Assembly (NCBI GenBank): GCA_019058015.1
Contig: JAHLWH010000235.1
Span: forward strand, 1 to 27,799
DNA from: Promethearchaeota archaeon
Lineage (GTDB): Archaea > Asgardarchaeota > Lokiarchaeia > Sigyniarchaeales > SOKP01
DNA: 27,799 nucleotides
Direction: 5' to 3'
The number at the start of each line of letters is the position of its first letter. Positions within the stretch are counted from its first letter, which is position 1. Shown here in pieces: positions 12,123 to 19,937 of the stretch. The notes under the pieces are model-generated. The model was given only the letters and a program-made list of their open reading frames with translations. It made no database searches and was not told the DNA's origin. The translations under genes were made by a program, and so were the position numbers.

Positions 12123-13603
12123 TTATTTAATATATCCATACCCTATTAGTCTAAACCGCTTTTTAATAACCCTACTGATGGATATTAATGAATTCTTCTC
12201 TGTGCATAATGGAATGGATAATTTCATAAGAACGAAATCTTTTGTAATTTTTGTCACAACCCCTGCAGTTCTCATAGTACCGCTTACCAATAATAAACGT
12301 TCATTATGTTTAATAGGTTCTACTTTTATTGGTTCTTCTGCCCCAATTACTTCATCCAATAAATGAACATCTAATTTAACGTCTGTTAAAATTTCTGGCA
12401 ATGTGCCTGGGACTCCACCTAAGTTTCCGATCAAAGAATCGCTTTTTGTAAGAAAAGGATCTAATTCAGTTCCAATTCCAATTAATCCGCCCGGCTTTGC
12501 CTCTTCCAGTCTAATATTTCCTTGACTAAGACTTACTGCTTTAGCAAAAATCGGTTCATATCCATTTTTTCCTCGTAACCCCGGTCTCATTTCTATATCA
12601 TCACCAATTTTTACTAATCCCTGAGTAATTGAACCTCCAATTACACCTCCTACTAATTTATCAATATCTGTTCCAGGTTTATTAATATCAAAAGATCTTG
12701 CAATTAAAAACTTAAAATCATCATTTTCATTTAATTGAGGTATAGGTATATTTTTTTCAAAATATTCTATTATAAGGTCGATATTTGCATTAAAAACTGC
12801 TGAAACTGGAATAATAGGAGCATTTTCTGCAATAGAACCTTTTAAGAAGCTTTTAATTTCATTAAAATTCTCTATTGCTCTTTCTTCAGAGACTGAATCT
12901 ATCTTATTTTGAACTATAACAATATTTTTAATATTAGCAATTTCTAAAGCAGCTAAGTGTTCTCGAGTTTGAGGTTGAGGACAAATCTCATCTGCTGCTA
13001 TTAGTAATAATGTCCCATTCATGAGTGAAGATCCACTAAGCATTGTAGACATTAACACACTATGCCCGGGTGCATCAACAAAGCTAATATTTCTTATAAA
13101 TTCGAGTTCTCCTTTACAAAAAATACATTTATATCTTTTTTCTCCCTTTTTGCGAGCCTGTTCAGTCATCCAATAAGTCATATATTTATTACAAGCGGAA
13201 CATTTTAAAATTGTTGAATTAGCATACCCTAACTTGATTGATATTCCTCTTTCTTGCTCATCTGAGAATCTATCTGTCCATTCTCCGCAAATAGCCTTGA
13301 CTAACGTCGTCTTTATGGAAAATGTCTAAATGACTATTTAATTCCATGATCGACGTGTCCTACAAGGCCAATATTCGTCTCTGCTTGAGTTTTACCGATT
13401 AAATCTTTAAGATTTTGAGAAACTTTCGGTTTTGTTGATGGTTTAGGAGAAATTTTTTCCTTAGGTTTTGATTTTTCAATAACCTTTTCTTTTATTTTTT
13501 CCTCTTGTACTTTCCCTTTTTTATCCTCTGAAGGCGCCACTGGACATTTATGTGCGCTTAATCTTTTAAACTCTTTTCCACAATAAGGACACTTTTGACT
13601 CAA
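12123..13603 (-). CDS. eif2g: Translation initiation factor aIF2 gamma subunit, intron-interrupted: join(13603..13342,13312..12123), 483 aa
   Basis: Exon 1 ends NIGLVGHVDHG. Exon 2 reads KTTLVKAICGEWTDRFSDEQERGISIKLGYAN...CSAC...CIFC...SFVDAPGH...PQPQTREH...QNKID...SA...FRLIGYG. Exon lengths 262+1190=1452 nt (484 codons including stop). TTG start with AAGGAG upstream. Confidence 0.93.
13313..13341 (-). other. 29-nt bulge-helix-bulge-type pre-mRNA intron
   Basis: Exon stem ACGUCG(A)UC/GACGACGU; 4-bp central helix AUGG/CCAU; bulges AAU and AAA; intron hairpin AAAU(A)GUC-AUUUA-GACAUUU. Cutting after the second bulge nucleotide on each side gives GGA-AAG-ACG-ACG (G-K-T-T). Confidence 0.88.
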
Positions 13604-13710
13604 TTGCTAAATAAAACTCCTTTTTTTTTATATTTAATATTTTAAATTGGTTCTTATTTTTAATGAAAATAAAATAATACAATAAATAAGTTTTTAGAAT
13701 TTTTGAAAAA

Positions 13711-13944
13711 TCAAGGTTTATCAATTGTATGAAGGGAATTTATTGCCACCTCTTTCTTTTCTTTTGTTGAATAAGAAATCCGTAATTTACTATCTACGTA
13801 AAAAGTTGAGAGTTGATCGCAAATTCCATTTTTATGCACAATATATACTGGTGCGGGGAATTTTTCAGTATTTATATCAGAAAGTTCAATTCGAAAAAAA
13901 ATTTTTGAATCGCAGTGCGGGCAATTACTTACTTTCAATACCAT
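13711..13944 (-). CDS. Small putative zinc-binding protein
   Basis: 77 aa with CPHC and a later H-x4-C; co-oriented and upstream of aIF2-gamma. Confidence 0.65.
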   Translation of the reverse strand: MVLKVSNCPHCDSKIFFRIELSDINTEKFPAPVYIVHKNGICDQLSTFYVDSKLRISYSTKEKKEVAINSLHTIDKP

Positions 13945-14114
13945 TTTTTTAACCCTTCTTAAATATTTCTCTTTATATACTTTATATCATTTTCATAATT
14001 TATCTATTTATTTGATAAAATAATCAAAATTTCATTCAAAATTATTTAATATAAATATAAATTTTATTAGAATAAATTAATTTAACATTCTAAAAGAAAA
14101 ATTACTTCCTTAAA

Positions 14115-16253
14115 ATGCAATTAGCCAACAAATTAAAATATTCAAGGTATTTGATTTTATTTTTACTTCATTATTGTATAATTTTTTCTCTCTTCTTAAC
14201 TTCAAGTTCTATTTCTCAACAAAGATTTTCTTTATCTGCAAATAATGAACTAAATATTGACCTTTCATTACTACCAAGAGTAAATCTTACTCAAAATTTA
14301 GAAGAATGGTTCAATCCAAAAATCGAAATGTTAATTATTGCTCCTCCAGATAAACTTAATTTCACTACTATTTTAACTCCCTTAGCTGAATGGAAAAATC
14401 AAAAAGGCGTAAAAACACAGATTTTAACGAATTATTCAAGTTATCCCGGTGTTGATACACAAGAAAAGATCAGAAATATGATTAAGAGCTATTATAGTTC
14501 GGAAAAAGTTCAATGGGTGTTGTTAGCAGGAGATACAGACTTAATTCCCATAAGATATGTATATAATAATGATGTAGTTCCTCTAGGTCAAAGTGAATCA
14601 TCTGAACTTGATAATTATTTTAAACCAACTGATTTTTATTATGCTGATTTAGATGGAACCTGGAATGATGACGGAGATGGGAGATGGGGTGAATCATCGG
14701 TATATAATAATAATGGAGTTGATGAAATCGATTGGACACCTGAAATTTATGTTGGACGATTACCTGCTTCTAATGATGAGGAGTTAGAAATTATGGTGAA
14801 TAAAACTCTTAAATACGAAACTAATCCTCACATTGGAGATTGGATGAATTCATTTTTGCTCGCAGGCGTAATTTCTGACTATCCACATCAAACAGAATCA
14901 GAAATTGGTGAAGATGAAGCTAGACTCACAAGTTATATTCTATCTAATTATGTTCCAGACTCAATGGATTATGTACATTTGATACAAACTACTTCAAGCT
15001 TCGAACCGAATCCAGATTTTGATAATATAACAGATCCAAGTTTAATATTTCGAAATAATTTTAATGATGGACATTCATTAGGAATTTTTGCAGGTCATGG
15101 AGCTCCCAATAGGTTTATAAGTGAATCTGGAAATATAGTTTACAGCAGCAGTAATGCAGGAAGTTCCTCAAATACTAATATGCCCACATTATTTTATGGT
15201 GATGCATGCACAACTTCTAGTTATGATTATGGAGATAATAACATCGGTGAAATTTTAATTAAAAGACAAGATGCCGGAGCGATAGGTTATATAGGAGCAT
15301 TAAGAGCTACTTGGTATTTTGAACAGGATCTGGATTTAGAAATGTTAAATCGCGGCAATTGCAAATTGTTTTGGAAAGCATTCTTTATTAATAAAAGTTA
15401 TCAACCTGGAAAAGCGCTTTACGATTCAAAAGTTGAATATCTGAAAAGTGATTGGTTTCAGTATTCAAATATAAATATGTCGCTCGAATGGGAAAGAAAG
15501 AACGTCTTAACCTATTGCCTATTGGGAGATCCTGAAGTAGATATTTATACAAATATCCCAAAAACCCCCAAAGATCCATTTATTGGAGATATATACGAAG
15601 GACAGCATTTCTCAATGTATATAACAGATATAAATGATAACGCTCTCTCAAATATTAGAATTAATTTTATAAGTAATACGGGGAAATATCGAACTTTCTA
15701 TTCAGATAAAAACGGTTACGTAAATATAATCCTCCCTTTGGGTATCGATACATATAATTATACAATTACCGGACATAATATCAAACCAATTAATGGTTCT
15801 TTTACAACCCTACCGGATAATAATCCTCCTATTTTAGAGAATCTCCATATGAATCCCGATATACCCTCTGTTTCTGATAATATCTGCTTTTCAATTAACG
15901 CAGCCGATAATGAATCCGGAATAGAAAATATTTTCTTTCTGATTTCAAATGATAATTTTTCTTCATATGATTATTTTCCTTTAGAAAAAGAAAGTAGCAT
16001 AGATGATTTACATTCCTGTACATTAAATAAATTGGATTTTATGGAATATCAATATGCCATTGTTGGATTTGATTATGCAAATAATTCAATTTTACTCTAT
16101 AACATAAATAATTTCCAAATTGAGATCCTGCCACCTATTTTATATTATGTTTTAATCTCAATTAATTTTGGATTGCTTGGATTACTTGCCTTAGGAATAG
16201 TAATTCTTTTTAATAATTGGCAAAATTACAAAAAGAAATATATAAGATCTTAA
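14115..16253 (+). CDS. Peptidase C25 (gingipain-like cysteine protease), secreted and membrane-anchored
   Basis: LAEWKNQKG, VLLAGD, TDFYYADLDG, EIYVGRLP, catalytic AGHG and DAC, GAIGYIG and LLGDP; N-terminal signal and C-terminal TM. Confidence 0.9.
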   Translation: MQLANKLKYSRYLILFLLHYCIIFSLFLTSSSISQQRFSLSANNELNIDLSLLPRVNLTQNLEEWFNPKIEMLIIAPPDKLNFTTILTPLAEWKNQKGVKTQILTNYSSYPGVDTQEKIRNMIKSYYSSEKVQWVLLAGDTDLIPIRYVYNNDVVPLGQSESSELDNYFKPTDFYYADLDGTWNDDGDGRWGESSVYNNNGVDEIDWTPEIYVGRLPASNDEELEIMVNKTLKYETNPHIGDWMNSFLLAGVISDYPHQTESEIGEDEARLTSYILSNYVPDSMDYVHLIQTTSSFEPNPDFDNITDPSLIFRNNFNDGHSLGIFAGHGAPNRFISESGNIVYSSSNAGSSSNTNMPTLFYGDACTTSSYDYGDNNIGEILIKRQDAGAIGYIGALRATWYFEQDLDLEMLNRGNCKLFWKAFFINKSYQPGKALYDSKVEYLKSDWFQYSNINMSLEWERKNVLTYCLLGDPEVDIYTNIPKTPKDPFIGDIYEGQHFSMYITDINDNALSNIRINFISNTGKYRTFYSDKNGYVNIILPLGIDTYNYTITGHNIKPINGSFTTLPDNNPPILENLHMNPDIPSVSDNICFSINAADNESGIENIFFLISNDNFSSYDYFPLEKESSIDDLHSCTLNKLDFMEYQYAIVGFDYANNSILLYNINNFQIEILPPILYYVLISINFGLLGLLALGIVILFNNWQNYKKKYIRS

Positions 16254-16258
16254 ATAAA

Positions 16259-16816
16259 TTAAAATGTTTCATTGGTTTTGTCAGTTAATGCTTCCTTTCT
16301 TAACGTTAAGAGATATCTGAGAGAACGATAAGAACCTAATAACCCATGACAAACCATTGCAAGACCAATAAAAAAAGCTGCAATATAATCTCCAAAAATA
16401 AAGACAAGAATCAACATTATAACTCCTGAAACACTGAAAGAAAAAATTAATGATATTTCACCAATTATGATTTTTCTAATCGAGGTTCGCCTCAAAATAT
16501 CTTTTAAATCATTATAATACTGGTCTTCGCCCTTATCTCTGATATACCAAGAACTTTCCAAGTTATTGGCAAATAGATATAGACTCCATAAAAAAATGAA
16601 AAGAGCAAGGTAAAAATCTAAAGATCCAAGTATTAAAATCGGAATCTGAACTAAAATCATCCCTTTCCAACCGATTTTTCTTGCCATTTTATTTGTTTCA
16701 AGTTTTAATTTTGCCGTAACATAGTAGGTGCTTAAAATATCTGAAGTCCTACCAATACTGACAATTAATAAATTTATTAAAAAATTAGAATTCTGATATA
16801 TTAATTGCATTAACAT
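16259..16816 (-). CDS. Hypothetical integral membrane protein
   Basis: Several hydrophobic helices; D..ST...E.N pattern near the N-terminus. Confidence 0.65.
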   Translation of the reverse strand: MLMQLIYQNSNFLINLLIVSIGRTSDILSTYYVTAKLKLETNKMARKIGWKGMILVQIPILILGSLDFYLALFIFLWSLYLFANNLESSWYIRDKGEDQYYNDLKDILRRTSIRKIIIGEISLIFSFSVSGVIMLILVFIFGDYIAAFFIGLAMVCHGLLGSYRSLRYLLTLRKEALTDKTNETF

Positions 16817-16909
16817 TTTTTTTCAAGTCCTTAGTAAAAATTAATAAATAAAAGTTAAACATTATAAAATATCTCTCTAATTTAAAATAATCATTTCAGT
16901 GAGGGAAAT

Positions 16910-18163
16910 ATGTGGGAAATTAACCCTTATGAAATAGCAAAAAAACAACTTGAGATAATTGCAAAAAAAATAGATTTACCTCCAAATATTGAAAAATTTC
17001 TCAAAAACATAGAACGTTCAGTTATTGTTTCAATTCCTGTCATCATGGATGATGGAAACCTTAAAATATTTGAAGGATTTCGTGTTCAACATTCCTCTGT
17101 TCTTGGTCCTTGTAAAGGTGGTGTACGATATAGCCAACTGGTGACACTTGATGAAATTAAAGCCTTAGCTATGCTAATGACTTGGAAAACAAGCCTTCAT
17201 AGACTCCCATTTGGAGGCTCAAAAGGAGGTGTTTGTGTTTATCCTAAAAATGTATCAAAAAGAGAATTAGAATGGATTACTAGAAGGTATACTGCAGAAA
17301 TAATTAATATGATAGGACCTAATAGAGATATTCCGGCACCAGATATTGGCACAGATGCTCAAATCATGGCATACATAATGGATACATATTCAATGCAGCA
17401 TGGAAAAACAATCCCTGGAGTTGTTACAGGAAAACCAATAGAAATAGGGGGGTCCCCAGGAAGAAGTGACGCAGCAGGAACTGGGCTTTTTTTTGTAATT
17501 GAAAAATATTGCGAGAAATTTGATTATGATTTAAAATCCATGACTATAGTTATTCAAGGATTTGGGAAAGTAGGCTCAGTTATTGCCAAAAAGTTATATG
17601 AATATGGATGTAAGATTATTGCAATTACTGAATTAGCGGGGGGAGTGTATTCTGAGAAGGATCTTGATGTAGACCAGTTAATAGAATGGAGAGACAAAGG
17701 AAAATTCCTTAAAGATTTTAAAGGAAATTCTATAAAATCAATTACCAATGAAGAACTATTCAAAATTAAATGCGATCTCTTAATACCTGCTGCAACAGAA
17801 AATCAAATTACTAAGCATAATGCAAATGATATCGATTGTAAAATTATTTTAGAGGGCGCTAACGGACCGACAACACCAAAAGCAGATGAAATTCTGAATA
17901 AAAAGGGCACTATTATTATTCCCGATATTCTTGCAAACGGTGGAGGCGTTATCGTTTCATATTTTGAATATGTCCAGGATATAAATGCATATTATTGGGA
18001 TTTAGAACGAGTCAATAAAGAACTAAAAAAGATTATCCTAGATACGTTTGAAAATGTTTGCAACCTTGCTAAAGAAAAGAAAGAGACCCTTCGAACTGCA
18101 TCTTATATGATTGCAGTTTCAAGAGTTGCAAAAGCTTTACAATTAAGGGGAATTTTTCCATAA
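16910..18163 (+). CDS. gdh: Glu/Leu/Phe/Val dehydrogenase (glutamate dehydrogenase), copy 1
   Basis: GPCKGGVRY, MTWK, PFGGSKGG, DIPAPD, VVTGKP, QGFGKVG, EGANGP and PDILANGGGV.VSYFE. Confidence 0.93.
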   Translation: MWEINPYEIAKKQLEIIAKKIDLPPNIEKFLKNIERSVIVSIPVIMDDGNLKIFEGFRVQHSSVLGPCKGGVRYSQLVTLDEIKALAMLMTWKTSLHRLPFGGSKGGVCVYPKNVSKRELEWITRRYTAEIINMIGPNRDIPAPDIGTDAQIMAYIMDTYSMQHGKTIPGVVTGKPIEIGGSPGRSDAAGTGLFFVIEKYCEKFDYDLKSMTIVIQGFGKVGSVIAKKLYEYGCKIIAITELAGGVYSEKDLDVDQLIEWRDKGKFLKDFKGNSIKSITNEELFKIKCDLLIPAATENQITKHNANDIDCKIILEGANGPTTPKADEILNKKGTIIIPDILANGGGVIVSYFEYVQDINAYYWDLERVNKELKKIILDTFENVCNLAKEKKETLRTASYMIAVSRVAKALQLRGIFP

Positions 18164-18261
18164 TGTAGAAAAAAAATGATAATATTATCTGTATTATTTA
18201 ATTACAACTTGTATAAAACAAAATATTAATATAAATATAAAAAATTGATAAGGGAAATTTT

Positions 18262-19512
18262 ATGGAAGTTAATCCTTTTGAAATGGCAAAACAACAATTG
18301 GCACTCGTCGCTGAAAAAATGAATTTAAATCCAGATGCACACTGTTTTCTTAAAAGAGTAGAAAGATCGTTAATTGTTTCAATACCCATTATTATGGATG
18401 ATGGTAGTCTTAAAATTTTCGAAGGATATCGTGTTCACCATTCAACTATTCGAGGTCCTGGAAAAGGTGGAGTGCGCTTTAGCCCTTTAGTTACTCTTGA
18501 TGAGGTTAAAGCGTTAGCAACTTGGATGACTTGGAAATGTGCTCTTCACAATCTCCCTTTAGGCGGTGCTAAAGGTGGAGTCTGTGTTGATCCTAATAAG
18601 TTGTCAAAAAGGGAACTTGAACGACTTACAAGGAGATATACTGCGGAAATTATTAGTATTATTGGACCAGATAAAGATATTCCTGCTCCAGATGTAGGTA
18701 CTAATGCCCAAACTATGGCTTGGATAATGGATACATATTCAATGCAATATGGAAATACTGTACCTGGAGTAGTCACAGGAAAGCCTTTAGAAATCGGAGG
18801 TTCGCCAGGAAGAAGTGAAGCAACGGGAACTGGCCTTTTTTTTGTAATAGAAAAATATTGTGAAAAAGAAGGTCTTGATTTAAAATCTATGTCTGTAATT
18901 ATTCAAGGTTTTGGAAAAGTTGGTTCCATTATTAGCAAAAGGCTGAATGAAAATGGGACAAAAATAATTGCAATTTCAGAATACTATGGTACAATTTATT
19001 CTGAGAAAGGTTTAAATATAGATGAATTAATAAAATGGCAAGAAAGTGGAAAACTTATTACTGATTTTAAAGATGATACTATTAAGATCATTCCCAATGA
19101 AGAATTTTTTAAAATTAAATGTGATATTATAATTCCAGCAGCAACAGAAAATCAAATAACTGAGCATAATGCAAATGATCTCAATTGTCAAATTATTTTA
19201 GAGGGCGCAAACGGACCAACAACACCAAAAGCAGATGAAATTCTAAATAAAAAGGGAATAGTTGTTATTCCCGATATTCTTGCTAACGGAGGGGGTGTGA
19301 TCGTTAGTTATTTTGAATACGTTCAGGATATAAATGCCTATTATTGGGATTTGGAGAGAGTGAATAAGGAACTAAAGAAAATTATTCTTAATGCATTTGA
19401 AGCTGTGTATAAACTAGTTAAAGAAAAAAATGTATCTTATAGAATTGCAGCATATATGATCGCCGTCTCAAGGGTTGCGAGGGCAATTGAATTACGGGGA
19501 ATCTTTCCATAA
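18262..19512 (+). CDS. gdh: Glutamate dehydrogenase, copy 2
   Basis: GPGKGGVRF, MTWK, PLGGAKGG, DIPAPD, GRSEATG, EGANGP and PDILANGGGV.VSYFE. Confidence 0.94.
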   Translation: MEVNPFEMAKQQLALVAEKMNLNPDAHCFLKRVERSLIVSIPIIMDDGSLKIFEGYRVHHSTIRGPGKGGVRFSPLVTLDEVKALATWMTWKCALHNLPLGGAKGGVCVDPNKLSKRELERLTRRYTAEIISIIGPDKDIPAPDVGTNAQTMAWIMDTYSMQYGNTVPGVVTGKPLEIGGSPGRSEATGTGLFFVIEKYCEKEGLDLKSMSVIIQGFGKVGSIISKRLNENGTKIIAISEYYGTIYSEKGLNIDELIKWQESGKLITDFKDDTIKIIPNEEFFKIKCDIIIPAATENQITEHNANDLNCQIILEGANGPTTPKADEILNKKGIVVIPDILANGGGVIVSYFEYVQDINAYYWDLERVNKELKKIILNAFEAVYKLVKEKNVSYRIAAYMIAVSRVARAIELRGIFP

Positions 19513-19612
19513 TTGAAATTTTAGTTCTAAAAAATCTTTTTTAATTTAACTTAAAAGTGATAAAATCACTGAAATTTTTAAATTGTATCATTAATGTCAT
19601 AAAAGATAGAAT

Positions 19613-19769
19613 GCAAATCGCACTAAATTTCTGAGTTCGGAAAGGGATCAGGTTTTTCCAACATCCTATGACCGTTAACGAATTAACAGTTTACAGTTTC
19701 CCAATAATCGCAATATCAGTACTATCTGTAACGATATGTTGTTTAACTTCCAGTCTAGTGCGAAAATGC
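19613..19769 (-). other. BHB-like processing stem flanking the permuted 5S rRNA
   Basis: UCGCACUAGA (19763-19754) pairs over 10 bp with UUUAGUGCGA (19627-19618). The central helix is CUGG/UCAG, with bulges AAG (19749-19747) and AAA (19630-19628). Confidence 0.85.
19629..19747 (-). rRNA. rrf: 5S rRNA, circularly permuted (canonical 3' half 19747-19683, UUCG linker 19682-19679, canonical 5' half 19678-19629)
   Basis: Reordered, it folds as 5S: helix I UUAACGGU/ACUGUUAA; helix II GGAUGUUG/CAACAU(A)UC with bulged A; helix III ACCUGA/UCAG(AA)GU; loop C UCCCUUUCCGAAC; helix V UUACAG/CUGUAA; loop E AGUA/GAA. Total length is 119 nt. Confidence 0.92.
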
Positions 19770-19937
19770 TATAAATTTATAATAAACCCTTTTATTTTAA
19801 TTTTACTTTTTGCATACTATTTTCATTCTAATTGTAATATTCCAACGTTTATTATGATTATTTTCTTAAAGATCTTAAATTTAATTAATTAACTTTTAAA
19901 AAATTTAAATAGTTCTGAAAATAATCTTAAAATATCG

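Follow-up and report, generated by a model that had tools for sequence, protein, structure and literature searches.

The stretch of DNA analyzed here (the window) spans positions 1 to 27,799 of contig JAHLWH010000235.1 from Promethearchaeota archaeon (assembly GCA_019058015.1), 27,799 nucleotides in all, and includes the gene for the essential translation initiation factor aIF2-gamma and a gene for 5S ribosomal RNA (rRNA), both on the minus strand. Each of these genes probably yields a genuine substrate of the splicing-endonuclease pathway, the former by way of a 29-nt intron bounded by a bulge-helix-bulge (BHB) motif and the latter by way of a circularly permuted layout whose transcript would be matured to a closed circle. 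As judged from sequence and its conservation, an archaeal mRNA intron and a conserved family of BHB-bounded, circularly permuted 5S genes are both new. An initial annotation had described the two sites as BHB-type excision substrates, and this was borne out: at each site the predicted product is restored exactly and the structure is conserved with covariation. All features of the two genes given below lie on the minus strand of the window, and numbers such as L001 denote related loci.

The aIF2-gamma gene was resolved into two exons from the list of open reading frames (ORFs), their translations and Pfam domains. Exon 1 (13342..13603) encodes a zinc-ribbon-like N-terminal extension followed by ...NIGLVGHVDHG and the first base of a lysine codon, and is collinear with residues 1-87 of the protein encoded by L001. 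Read through without processing, it forms an 89-codon ORF (13603..13334) that terminates ...NIGLVGHVDHG-I-K-stop at an in-frame UAG (13336-13334). Exon 2 (12123..13312), which begins (A)AG ACG and ends with the stop codon at 12123, lies in a different frame (K-TTLVKAICGEW...), is 93-94% identical to L001-L003 and has Pfam matches to GTP_EFTU, GTP_EFTU_D2 and eIF2_C. The 29 nt between them (13313..13341) split the P-loop between GHVDHG and KT; their removal (13341..13313) gives CAU GGA AAG ACG (H-G-K-T) and rebuilds GHVDHG-K-TTL in frame, and the P-loop GHVDHGKT is complete only with these 29 nt removed. L001 (93% identical) encodes the same protein, from the same start, as a single uninterrupted 483-amino-acid (aa) ORF. 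The boundaries of the insert can be slid by at most 2 nt, because AA is repeated at both ends.

Were the insert to remain in the mRNA, the gene would have to be a pseudogene, encode two polypeptides or be translated by ribosomal bypassing, all of which we consider extremely improbable. Phage T4 gene 60 is translated by ribosomal bypass, and the insert bears a superficial likeness to that case, in that it follows a GGA codon and contains a stop codon and a hairpin; a matching GGA landing codon is, however, absent before exon 2. Both reading frames are intact, each piece of a two-piece protein would be without a nucleotide-binding site because the insert lies inside the P-loop, and the BHB pairing described below is kept by compensatory changes in five sequences. 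All three readings were rejected on these grounds; GHVDHGKTTLVK is the peptide of the predicted spliced product.

The insert and its flanks form a complete hBHBh' motif (13304..13356), which was assessed by fold z-score and by covariation over five intron sequences. The outer helix pairs ACGUCG(A)UC with GACGACGU (13356-13348 with 13311-13304; 8 bp and one bulged A) and is largely made of codon third positions, the central helix pairs AUGG (13347-13344) with CCAU (13318-13315), and the fairly good inner helix consists of a U.U, 4 bp, a bulge and a 3-bp hairpin (GUC-AUUUA-GAC). The 5' site reads AUGGAA|U (13347-13342|13341) and the 3' site CCAU-AA|A (13318-13315, 13314-13313|13312), so that cutting after base 2 of each 3-nt bulge (AA|U and AA|A) would give the exact product required. 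The fold z-score of the region is -4.6, and none of 200 shuffles was equally stable. Across the five sequences the BHB pairing is formed in 85% of cells, as opposed to 32-47% with the partners slid, and six pairs have changed on both sides, a number reached by none of 500 shuffles. By helix, pairing holds in 95% of cells for the central, 80% for the outer and 85% for the inner helix, in which five pairs are double-changed; the hairpin of L013 differs in sequence and stands in the same place.

Two points weigh against this assignment. The outer exon-exon helix is weak in L013 and L017, and in the window the canonical BHB conformer (-12.4 kcal/mol) is 5.3 kcal/mol less stable than the minimum free energy (MFE) fold (-17.7 kcal/mol), in which the two bulge A's are paired with UU to give a 6-bp central helix (AUGGAA/UUCCAU). 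This longer helix was rejected as the cleaved form, since cuts in its bulges would give an out-of-frame product and since L003 breaks the extra pairs, a U-to-C change there abolishing the 6-bp alternative. On the restored frame and the covarying structure, the insert has the form of a canonical BHB intron and is probably a genuine substrate of the splicing-endonuclease type.

Use of aIF2-gamma exon 2 as query retrieved 26 related loci, of which the closest (93-94% identity) are metagenome-assembled genomes of Promethearchaeota/Promethearchaeia, 14 are further Asgard loci at 62-65% identity, and nine come from Bathyarchaeia, Thermoproteota and related groups (44-53% identity). GHVDHGK|TTL is uninterrupted in 22 of them; the other four carry an insert at exactly the same codon (29 nt in L003, L011 and L017, 30 nt in L013), and the intron is missing from near-identical relatives of the window. 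A tree of exon 2 that includes every one of the 27 rows scatters those that have the intron: L003 has L002 as its sister (support 96/97) and L011 has L014 (100/100), both sisters lacking the intron, and L013 is placed among intron-less L007-L009. Such placement beside intron-less sisters is as expected of an excisable element and implies repeated precise loss, or gain. Presence and absence in near-identical genomes make loss and gain directly observable.

A BHB intron is reported in the cbf5 pre-mRNA of Crenarchaeota, and the available text of that paper explains its patchy distribution by gain and loss (Yokobori et al. 2009, PMC2738675). As far as this text goes, the cbf5 and aIF2-gamma introns are alike in being short, BHB-bounded, patchily distributed and located in archaeal protein-coding genes of the translation or RNA machinery; the aIF2-gamma intron, unlike that of cbf5, lies inside a P-loop, occurs in the Asgard phylum, is only 29 nt long and has an outer helix made of codon third positions. 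It would thus represent an archaeal mRNA intron beyond the known cbf5 case. As a separate observation on the protein, the N-terminal extension of aIF2-gamma (~70 aa; 13337-13603) contains a CPYC...HKC zinc-ribbon-like motif and a Lys/Glu-rich linker; it is common to L001, and distant Asgard loci are also Lys-rich just upstream of the P-loop.

Neither Rfam at gathering threshold nor ARAGORN returned a match anywhere in the window, and the 5S signal became visible only when Rfam was run in E-value mode. For the 5S family (RF00001; gathering score 38), a collinear match at 19679..19558 scored 28.2 bits (25.3-32.8 bits in relatives), with only model positions 1-57 well aligned and the remainder consisting of non-standard pairs with no loop E. 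A search restricted to 19752..19676 gave a second match, model positions 47-120 at 19752..19681, which holds UAGUACUG...UGGGAAAC (loop E and helices IV and V) and the 3' strand of helix I. The gene order is [47-120][1-51], with the 3' part upstream of the 5' part (positions 1-57 run from 19679 on), and direct reading shows the old termini joined by a UUCG tetraloop (CUGUUAA-UUCG-UUAACGG).

In this order the predicted excised RNA (119 nt, 19629..19747; delimited by Rfam, boundaries in relatives and covariation) begins with the 3' side of loop B (GUUAAAC) and the 3' strand of helix II (19733..19747; Rfam alignment), followed by helix V, loop E (AGUA / GAA), helix IV and loop D (19691..19731; Rfam, and RNAalifold on a plain MAFFT alignment). 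Helix I comes next (8 bp closed by UUCG, 19671..19690; direct reading, MFE folds and covariation), and the RNA finishes with loop A, the 5' strand of helix II, loop B, helix III and loop C (CCGAAC), ending ...UCAGAA (19629..19670; Rfam positions 1-51 at high posterior probability). Once read in permuted order, the three-way junction of helices I, II-III and IV-V is complete and all helices covary; the RNA contains the 5S motifs CCGAAC, AGUACUG and GGGAA and, spanning the junction, GAAGUUAAAC. The 5S rRNA gene of the window is, on this reading of its sequence, circularly permuted and bounded by a BHB.

Homologs of the 5S region were found by blastn in 13 further loci, all Asgard. Comparison with them leaves it very unlikely that 19679..19558 is a regular collinear 5S gene whose 3' half has diverged, or that the locus is a decaying duplicate with a working 5S elsewhere. 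Rfam does align its model end to end on this span, at 28.2 bits in the window and 32.8 bits in L003, yet these scores stay below gathering, and in the 3' half loop E is missing and many pairs are non-standard. Within the set of the window and L001-L003, the predicted excised RNAs match at 115/120 to 119/119 positions, leader bases are identical at 27-28 of 30 positions and the first 22 trailer bases at 22 of 22, whereas the next 78 nt, which would form the collinear 3' half, are identical at only 43-55 of 78, and blastn aligns almost none of them in L001. A decaying copy would also not hold compensatory changes in five helices across lineages in which aIF2-gamma is only 62-65% identical.

The ends of the permuted RNA are defined by a leader and a trailer that pair with each other, the leader also pairing with helix III. 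The leader half of the BHB (19750..19763) comprises the outer strand UCGCACUAGA (19763-19754) and central CUGG (19753-19750), followed by the bulge AA|G; the trailer (19607..19628) comprises bulge base A19628, the outer strand UUUAGUGCGA (19627-19618) and a conserved tail, after which a T run begins. An uninterrupted stem of 10 bp joins the outer strands (19763-19754 with 19627-19618), and the CUGG of the leader finds its partner in helix III (UCAG). Folding of the precursor predicts this outer stem, the 4-bp CUGG/UCAG helix and a 3-nt AAA bulge in the MFE and in the centroid structure alike. Cuts at the 5' site CUGGAA|G (19753-19748|19747) and the 3' site UCAG-AA|A (19634-19631, 19630-19629|19628) would enclose exactly 119 nt (19747..19629), and joining of the two ends gives ...CCGAACUCAGAA-GUUAAAC..., the exact 5S consensus at the junction, with GUUAAACAACAU as its downstream side.

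In the 13 loci with a complete 5S (the window counted, and L006, which is cut by a contig end, left out), all four pairs of the central helix form in 12, and three of the four in L017. U-A, U.G and C-G all occur as the second pair of this helix, and 3-10 bp make up the outer helix next to it. A long leader-trailer helix, UUAACCACA with UGUGGUUAA, is added in lineages that do not belong to the window's family. What counts against a BHB here is the inner helix, which has 0-1 consecutive pairs in all 13 loci, so that the 5' site is a bulge-helix-loop and a permissive enzyme would be needed. The initial annotation had given both sites a good outer stem and a relaxed inner helix; the outer stem was found at both, while the inner helix is fairly good in the intron and absent from the 5S.

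Several further features surround the 5S ends. In L004, L007-L009 and L011-L014 the UUAACCACA/UGUGGUUAA helix stands ~30-40 nt upstream and 10-25 nt downstream of the 5S ends, with a compensatory AUAACCACA/UGUGGUUAU in L009; the same loci have a small leader hairpin, only 3 bp (GCG/CGC or ACG/CGU) adjoining the BHB, and an A/U run in the trailer that is a possible terminator. In the window, AUAGUAUGCAAA (19808-19819) pairs at 11 of 12 positions with the conserved trailer UUUGCAUUCUAU (19607-19618), which would lengthen the processing stem if transcription starts upstream of the A/T-rich box at ~19770-19785.

Predicted excised RNAs measure 119-121 nt in 11 of the 13 complete loci, and 151 nt in L013 and 181 nt in L017, both of which have inserts. 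Two gene types were distinguished by breakpoint. Type A, with the break after ...YCRGAA, comprises the window, L001-L004, L006, L011, L012, L014 and L017, and type B, with a 16-nt block CCAUCCGAACCCGGAA at the 5' end and the break in loop C, comprises L007-L009 and L013; on the aIF2-gamma tree the type B rows cluster together with high support (100/99), in the midst of rows of type A. The two breakpoints would give one identical circle. Six type A sequences were used to build a covariance model of the permuted RNA, which detected a single copy per source in 14 sources and no other in 460 kb.

With plain MAFFT, helix II was misplaced in alignment A1 and helix III in alignments A3 and A4, and RNAalifold on A1 missed both helices; sequences were therefore realigned with the covariance model. 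In that alignment the permuted 5S pairing is formed in 95.7% of cells (32-43% when slid), 15 of 33 pairs have changed on both sides, including four of five in the longer segment of helix II and three of eight in helix I, and the covariation score was reached by none of 500 shuffles. An alignment of this kind is fitted to the structure of its model, which biases these covariation counts towards the permuted fold and has to be set against it. From the plain MAFFT alignment, RNAalifold recovered three helices (V, IV and I), and 10 of their 21 pairs show compensatory change. The loop of helix I is a tight 4 nt (UUCG, UACG or UUAG) in 12 of the 13 complete loci.

The two longer RNAs contain candidate nested BHB introns inside a ~120-nt rRNA gene. 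In L017 (3118-3298), a 30-nt insert in loop C has a central helix UCCG/CGGG, bulges AA|A and AA|C and an 8-bp inner helix, and its excision would restore the consensus CCCAUCCGAA^CCCGGAA. In L013 (6065-6215, minus strand), a 30-nt insert in loop D of helix IV has a central helix UUGC/GUAG and a 6-bp outer helix, and its excision would restore the consensus UUGCGA^UCUAUGGG. L017 also has, in place of the helix I tetraloop, a ~30-nt insert with its own hairpin, for which no BHB restoring the consensus was found; it may be an expansion segment or a spacer. The initial annotation had expected further cases or motif conservation in relatives, and further cases are found: the intron recurs in four of the 26 loci, the permuted 5S in 13 further loci, and nested inserts in two relatives.

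The two presumably spliced genes are also neighbors. In the window and the 13 loci, a distance of 1.3-6.9 kb separates aIF2-gamma from the permuted 5S upstream of it, and this holds across Asgard lineages with aIF2-gamma identities of only 62-65%; the two share a strand in the window, L001-L003 and L017, and lie on opposite strands in the other loci. Four Asgard loci with no match to the permuted model have only 0.9-2.1 kb of upstream sequence. As read from these loci, the linkage of the two genes is conserved.

The initial annotation had located UGG-AA|N at both 5' sites and AA|A at both 3' bulges, and all of these letters are where it placed them; its reading of them as a conserved junction signature did not hold up, since they vary in relatives and are largely dictated by the host sequence. 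Bulges in relatives read AA|U, UA|U, AA|G, AG|G and AA|C at 5' sites and AA|A, AC|A, AA|U and UC|A at 3' sites. The letters AUGGAA..A in aIF2-gamma are His-Gly-Lys codons, and both AA bulges of the 5S are copies of the conserved 5S motif CYRGAA, duplicated in the leader. It is doubtful, though conceivable, that the EndA of this lineage, or intron insertion, has a genuine preference for these letters. For such a preference speak the frequencies of AA in the first two bulge positions (4/5 5' and 4/5 3' bulges of the intron; 12/13 5' and 9/13 3' bulges of the 5S ends) and the bulges AA|A and AA|C of the nested insert in L017. Many of these counts are, however, non-independent, coming from closely related sequences; the AA's are already dictated by the Gly-Lys codons and by CYRGAA; exceptions occur (UA|U, AC|A, AG|G, UC|A, GA|A and AG|U); and the genome is A-rich. 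The leader CUGGAA resembles a leftover of 5S positions 46-51 and the trailer AUUUAG a leftover of GUUAAG, a pattern expected if the permutation arose by tandem duplication, as it may have done.

Scans of the window for BHB geometry gave 26,492 hits with relaxed settings (23,480 ± 217 in 20 shuffles) and 204 with strict settings (151 ± 16 in shuffles). BHB geometry alone is no evidence, and support for the two sites comes from restored products, fold z-score and covariation in relatives. Such naive scans being uninformative, they were not used to nominate further introns. BHB scans are swamped by chance hits; permuted models, or homology restored by excision, are a way to more cases.

For the intron, we propose that EndA cuts both bulges after base 2 and that RtcB joins the aIF2-gamma exons, which would restore the GTPase. 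For the 5S, the leader-trailer stem and the 4-bp helix would put the ends of the 119-nt RNA in 3-nt AA|N bulges, EndA would cut there, and RtcB would ligate the excised RNA end to end into a closed 5S (...UCAGAA-GUUAAAC...). EndA cleavage and RtcB ligation at both sites are a sound inference from the established pathway. A broad-specificity EndA would fit with the accessible part of a preprint about tRNA introns of Asgard archaea that describes two EndA paralogues, consistent with a permissive (alpha-beta)2 enzyme, in 44 of 60 Asgard genomes (bioRxiv 10.64898/2026.10.13.758758). The initial annotation had spoken of rRNA circularization at the 5S site; BHB excision stands, and the term understates the case, since the gene itself is permuted and joining would be needed to restore 5S continuity. 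It had further suggested that ribosome biogenesis is thereby coupled to initiation-factor supply, which is speculation that the data here do not support.

Ligation could in principle be dispensed with, the permuted 5S being trimmed by EndA and the mature RNA remaining linear with termini between helix III and loop B; we rate this as rather unlikely. The fold would be coherent without the covalent link, as helices II and III flank the break, and fragmented and permuted rRNAs work in some organelles. Archaeal BHB cleavage products are, on the other hand, normally ligated. Circular 16S and 23S rRNAs are known, Asgard archaea included, according to the available text of one study (PMC12918454). 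Unligated, the two gene types would give differently nicked 5S rRNAs, one broken in loop C and the other after helix III, while ligation gives one product.

Less likely still is a circle that serves only as an intermediate and is opened again in the helix I loop, yielding a linear 5S of the usual kind. Permuted tRNA genes of Cyanidioschyzon merolae, which Soma and colleagues are said to have described in 2007, reportedly mature via a circular intermediate that is then reopened and would be a precedent, and the ~30-nt helix I loop insert of L017 could serve as a spacer. In 12 of the 13 complete loci, however, a tight 4-nt loop closes the covarying helix and leaves a processing signal no space. 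Given the tight, covarying tetraloops that close helix I, we favor the circle as the mature form of the 5S, as inferred from these sequences.

Among known systems, the permuted tRNA genes just mentioned and the permuted signal recognition particle (SRP) RNA of Thermoproteus resemble the 5S gene in having the 3' half upstream, looped termini, BHB or bulge-helix-loop ends and a circle stage. They differ from it in that the permuted RNA here is a 5S rRNA, in that its tight tetraloop makes the circle probably mature, and in that two breakpoints occur in sister lineages. 5S rRNA is usually treated as the most invariant rRNA.

Circular precursors of 16S and 23S rRNA arise from BHB processing stems, and circular or permuted 23S rRNA is also described (PMC12918454, PMC7758197). 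In the portions of these papers available, the circles are like the 5S here in having a leader-trailer stem with a BHB, EndA-type excision and a circularized rRNA, and they come from collinear genes, unlike the 5S, whose gene order is permuted. One of them, a 2026 Genome Biology paper, states in its accessible text that BHB circularization concerns 16S and 23S "but not 5S rRNAs" (PMC12918454). Permuted 5S rRNAs are described in mitochondria (Valach et al. 2014, PMC4267664); as in the window, the gene order is permuted and hence missed by standard models, whereas, in the text available, these RNAs are organellar and without BHB or EndA context, and the gene here sits on an archaeal chromosome and has BHB-type ends. 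In Sulfolobus and Halobacterium, normal genes give rise to circular 5S species, suggested to reflect degradation, that are covalently closed and 5S-derived like the predicted circle (PMC12558985). According to the accessible part of that report they have variable ends and collinear genes, whereas one defined junction, needed for function, is predicted here (PMC12558985). A literature search, which did not extend to subscription-only papers or bioRxiv supplements, yielded no description of an archaeal 5S gene that is permuted or processed at a BHB, and none of an intron in aIF2-gamma.

The window has a G+C content of ~30%, and Pfam was run on 27 of its 35 ORFs of at least 80 aa. Asgard-typical proteins identified in this way include ribosomal protein L22e, a Ras-family GTPase, eIF-1A, Spt5 and a TFS-like zinc ribbon. 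Neither an endA nor an rtcB domain was present among the 27 scanned ORFs, which agrees with the initial annotation that these genes lie outside the window and counts against the proposed pathway. Between aIF2-gamma and the 5S lie tandem glutamate dehydrogenase paralogues of 417 and 416 aa (16910-18163 and 18262-19512). A small unannotated ORF of ~79 aa with a CPHC motif, below the 80-aa cut-off, lies between aIF2-gamma and a C25 peptidase gene (13702-13940, minus strand).

A BHB-dependent permuted 5S, if true, would extend the route of permuted gene and splicing endonuclease from tRNA and SRP RNA to rRNA and predicts a circular 5S within the ribosome. In closed Heimdallarchaeum genomes 5S genes "could not be predicted" (PMC8813620); permutation offers a testable reason for this and may affect genome-quality standards that require a 5S. 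For Asgard archaea at large, we see about an even chance that a large clade (Promethearchaeota/Hermod-type) makes its 5S as a closed circle, by EndA and RtcB, from permuted genes of which some carry BHB introns, which would explain the missed 5S genes and make these enzymes essential to ribosome structure and initiation. Both genes of the window appear to need the same RNA cut-and-rejoin enzymes; this may explain why 5S is hard to find in some Asgard genomes and, if true, would make these enzymes essential to 5S and to translation initiation in relatives of eukaryotes.

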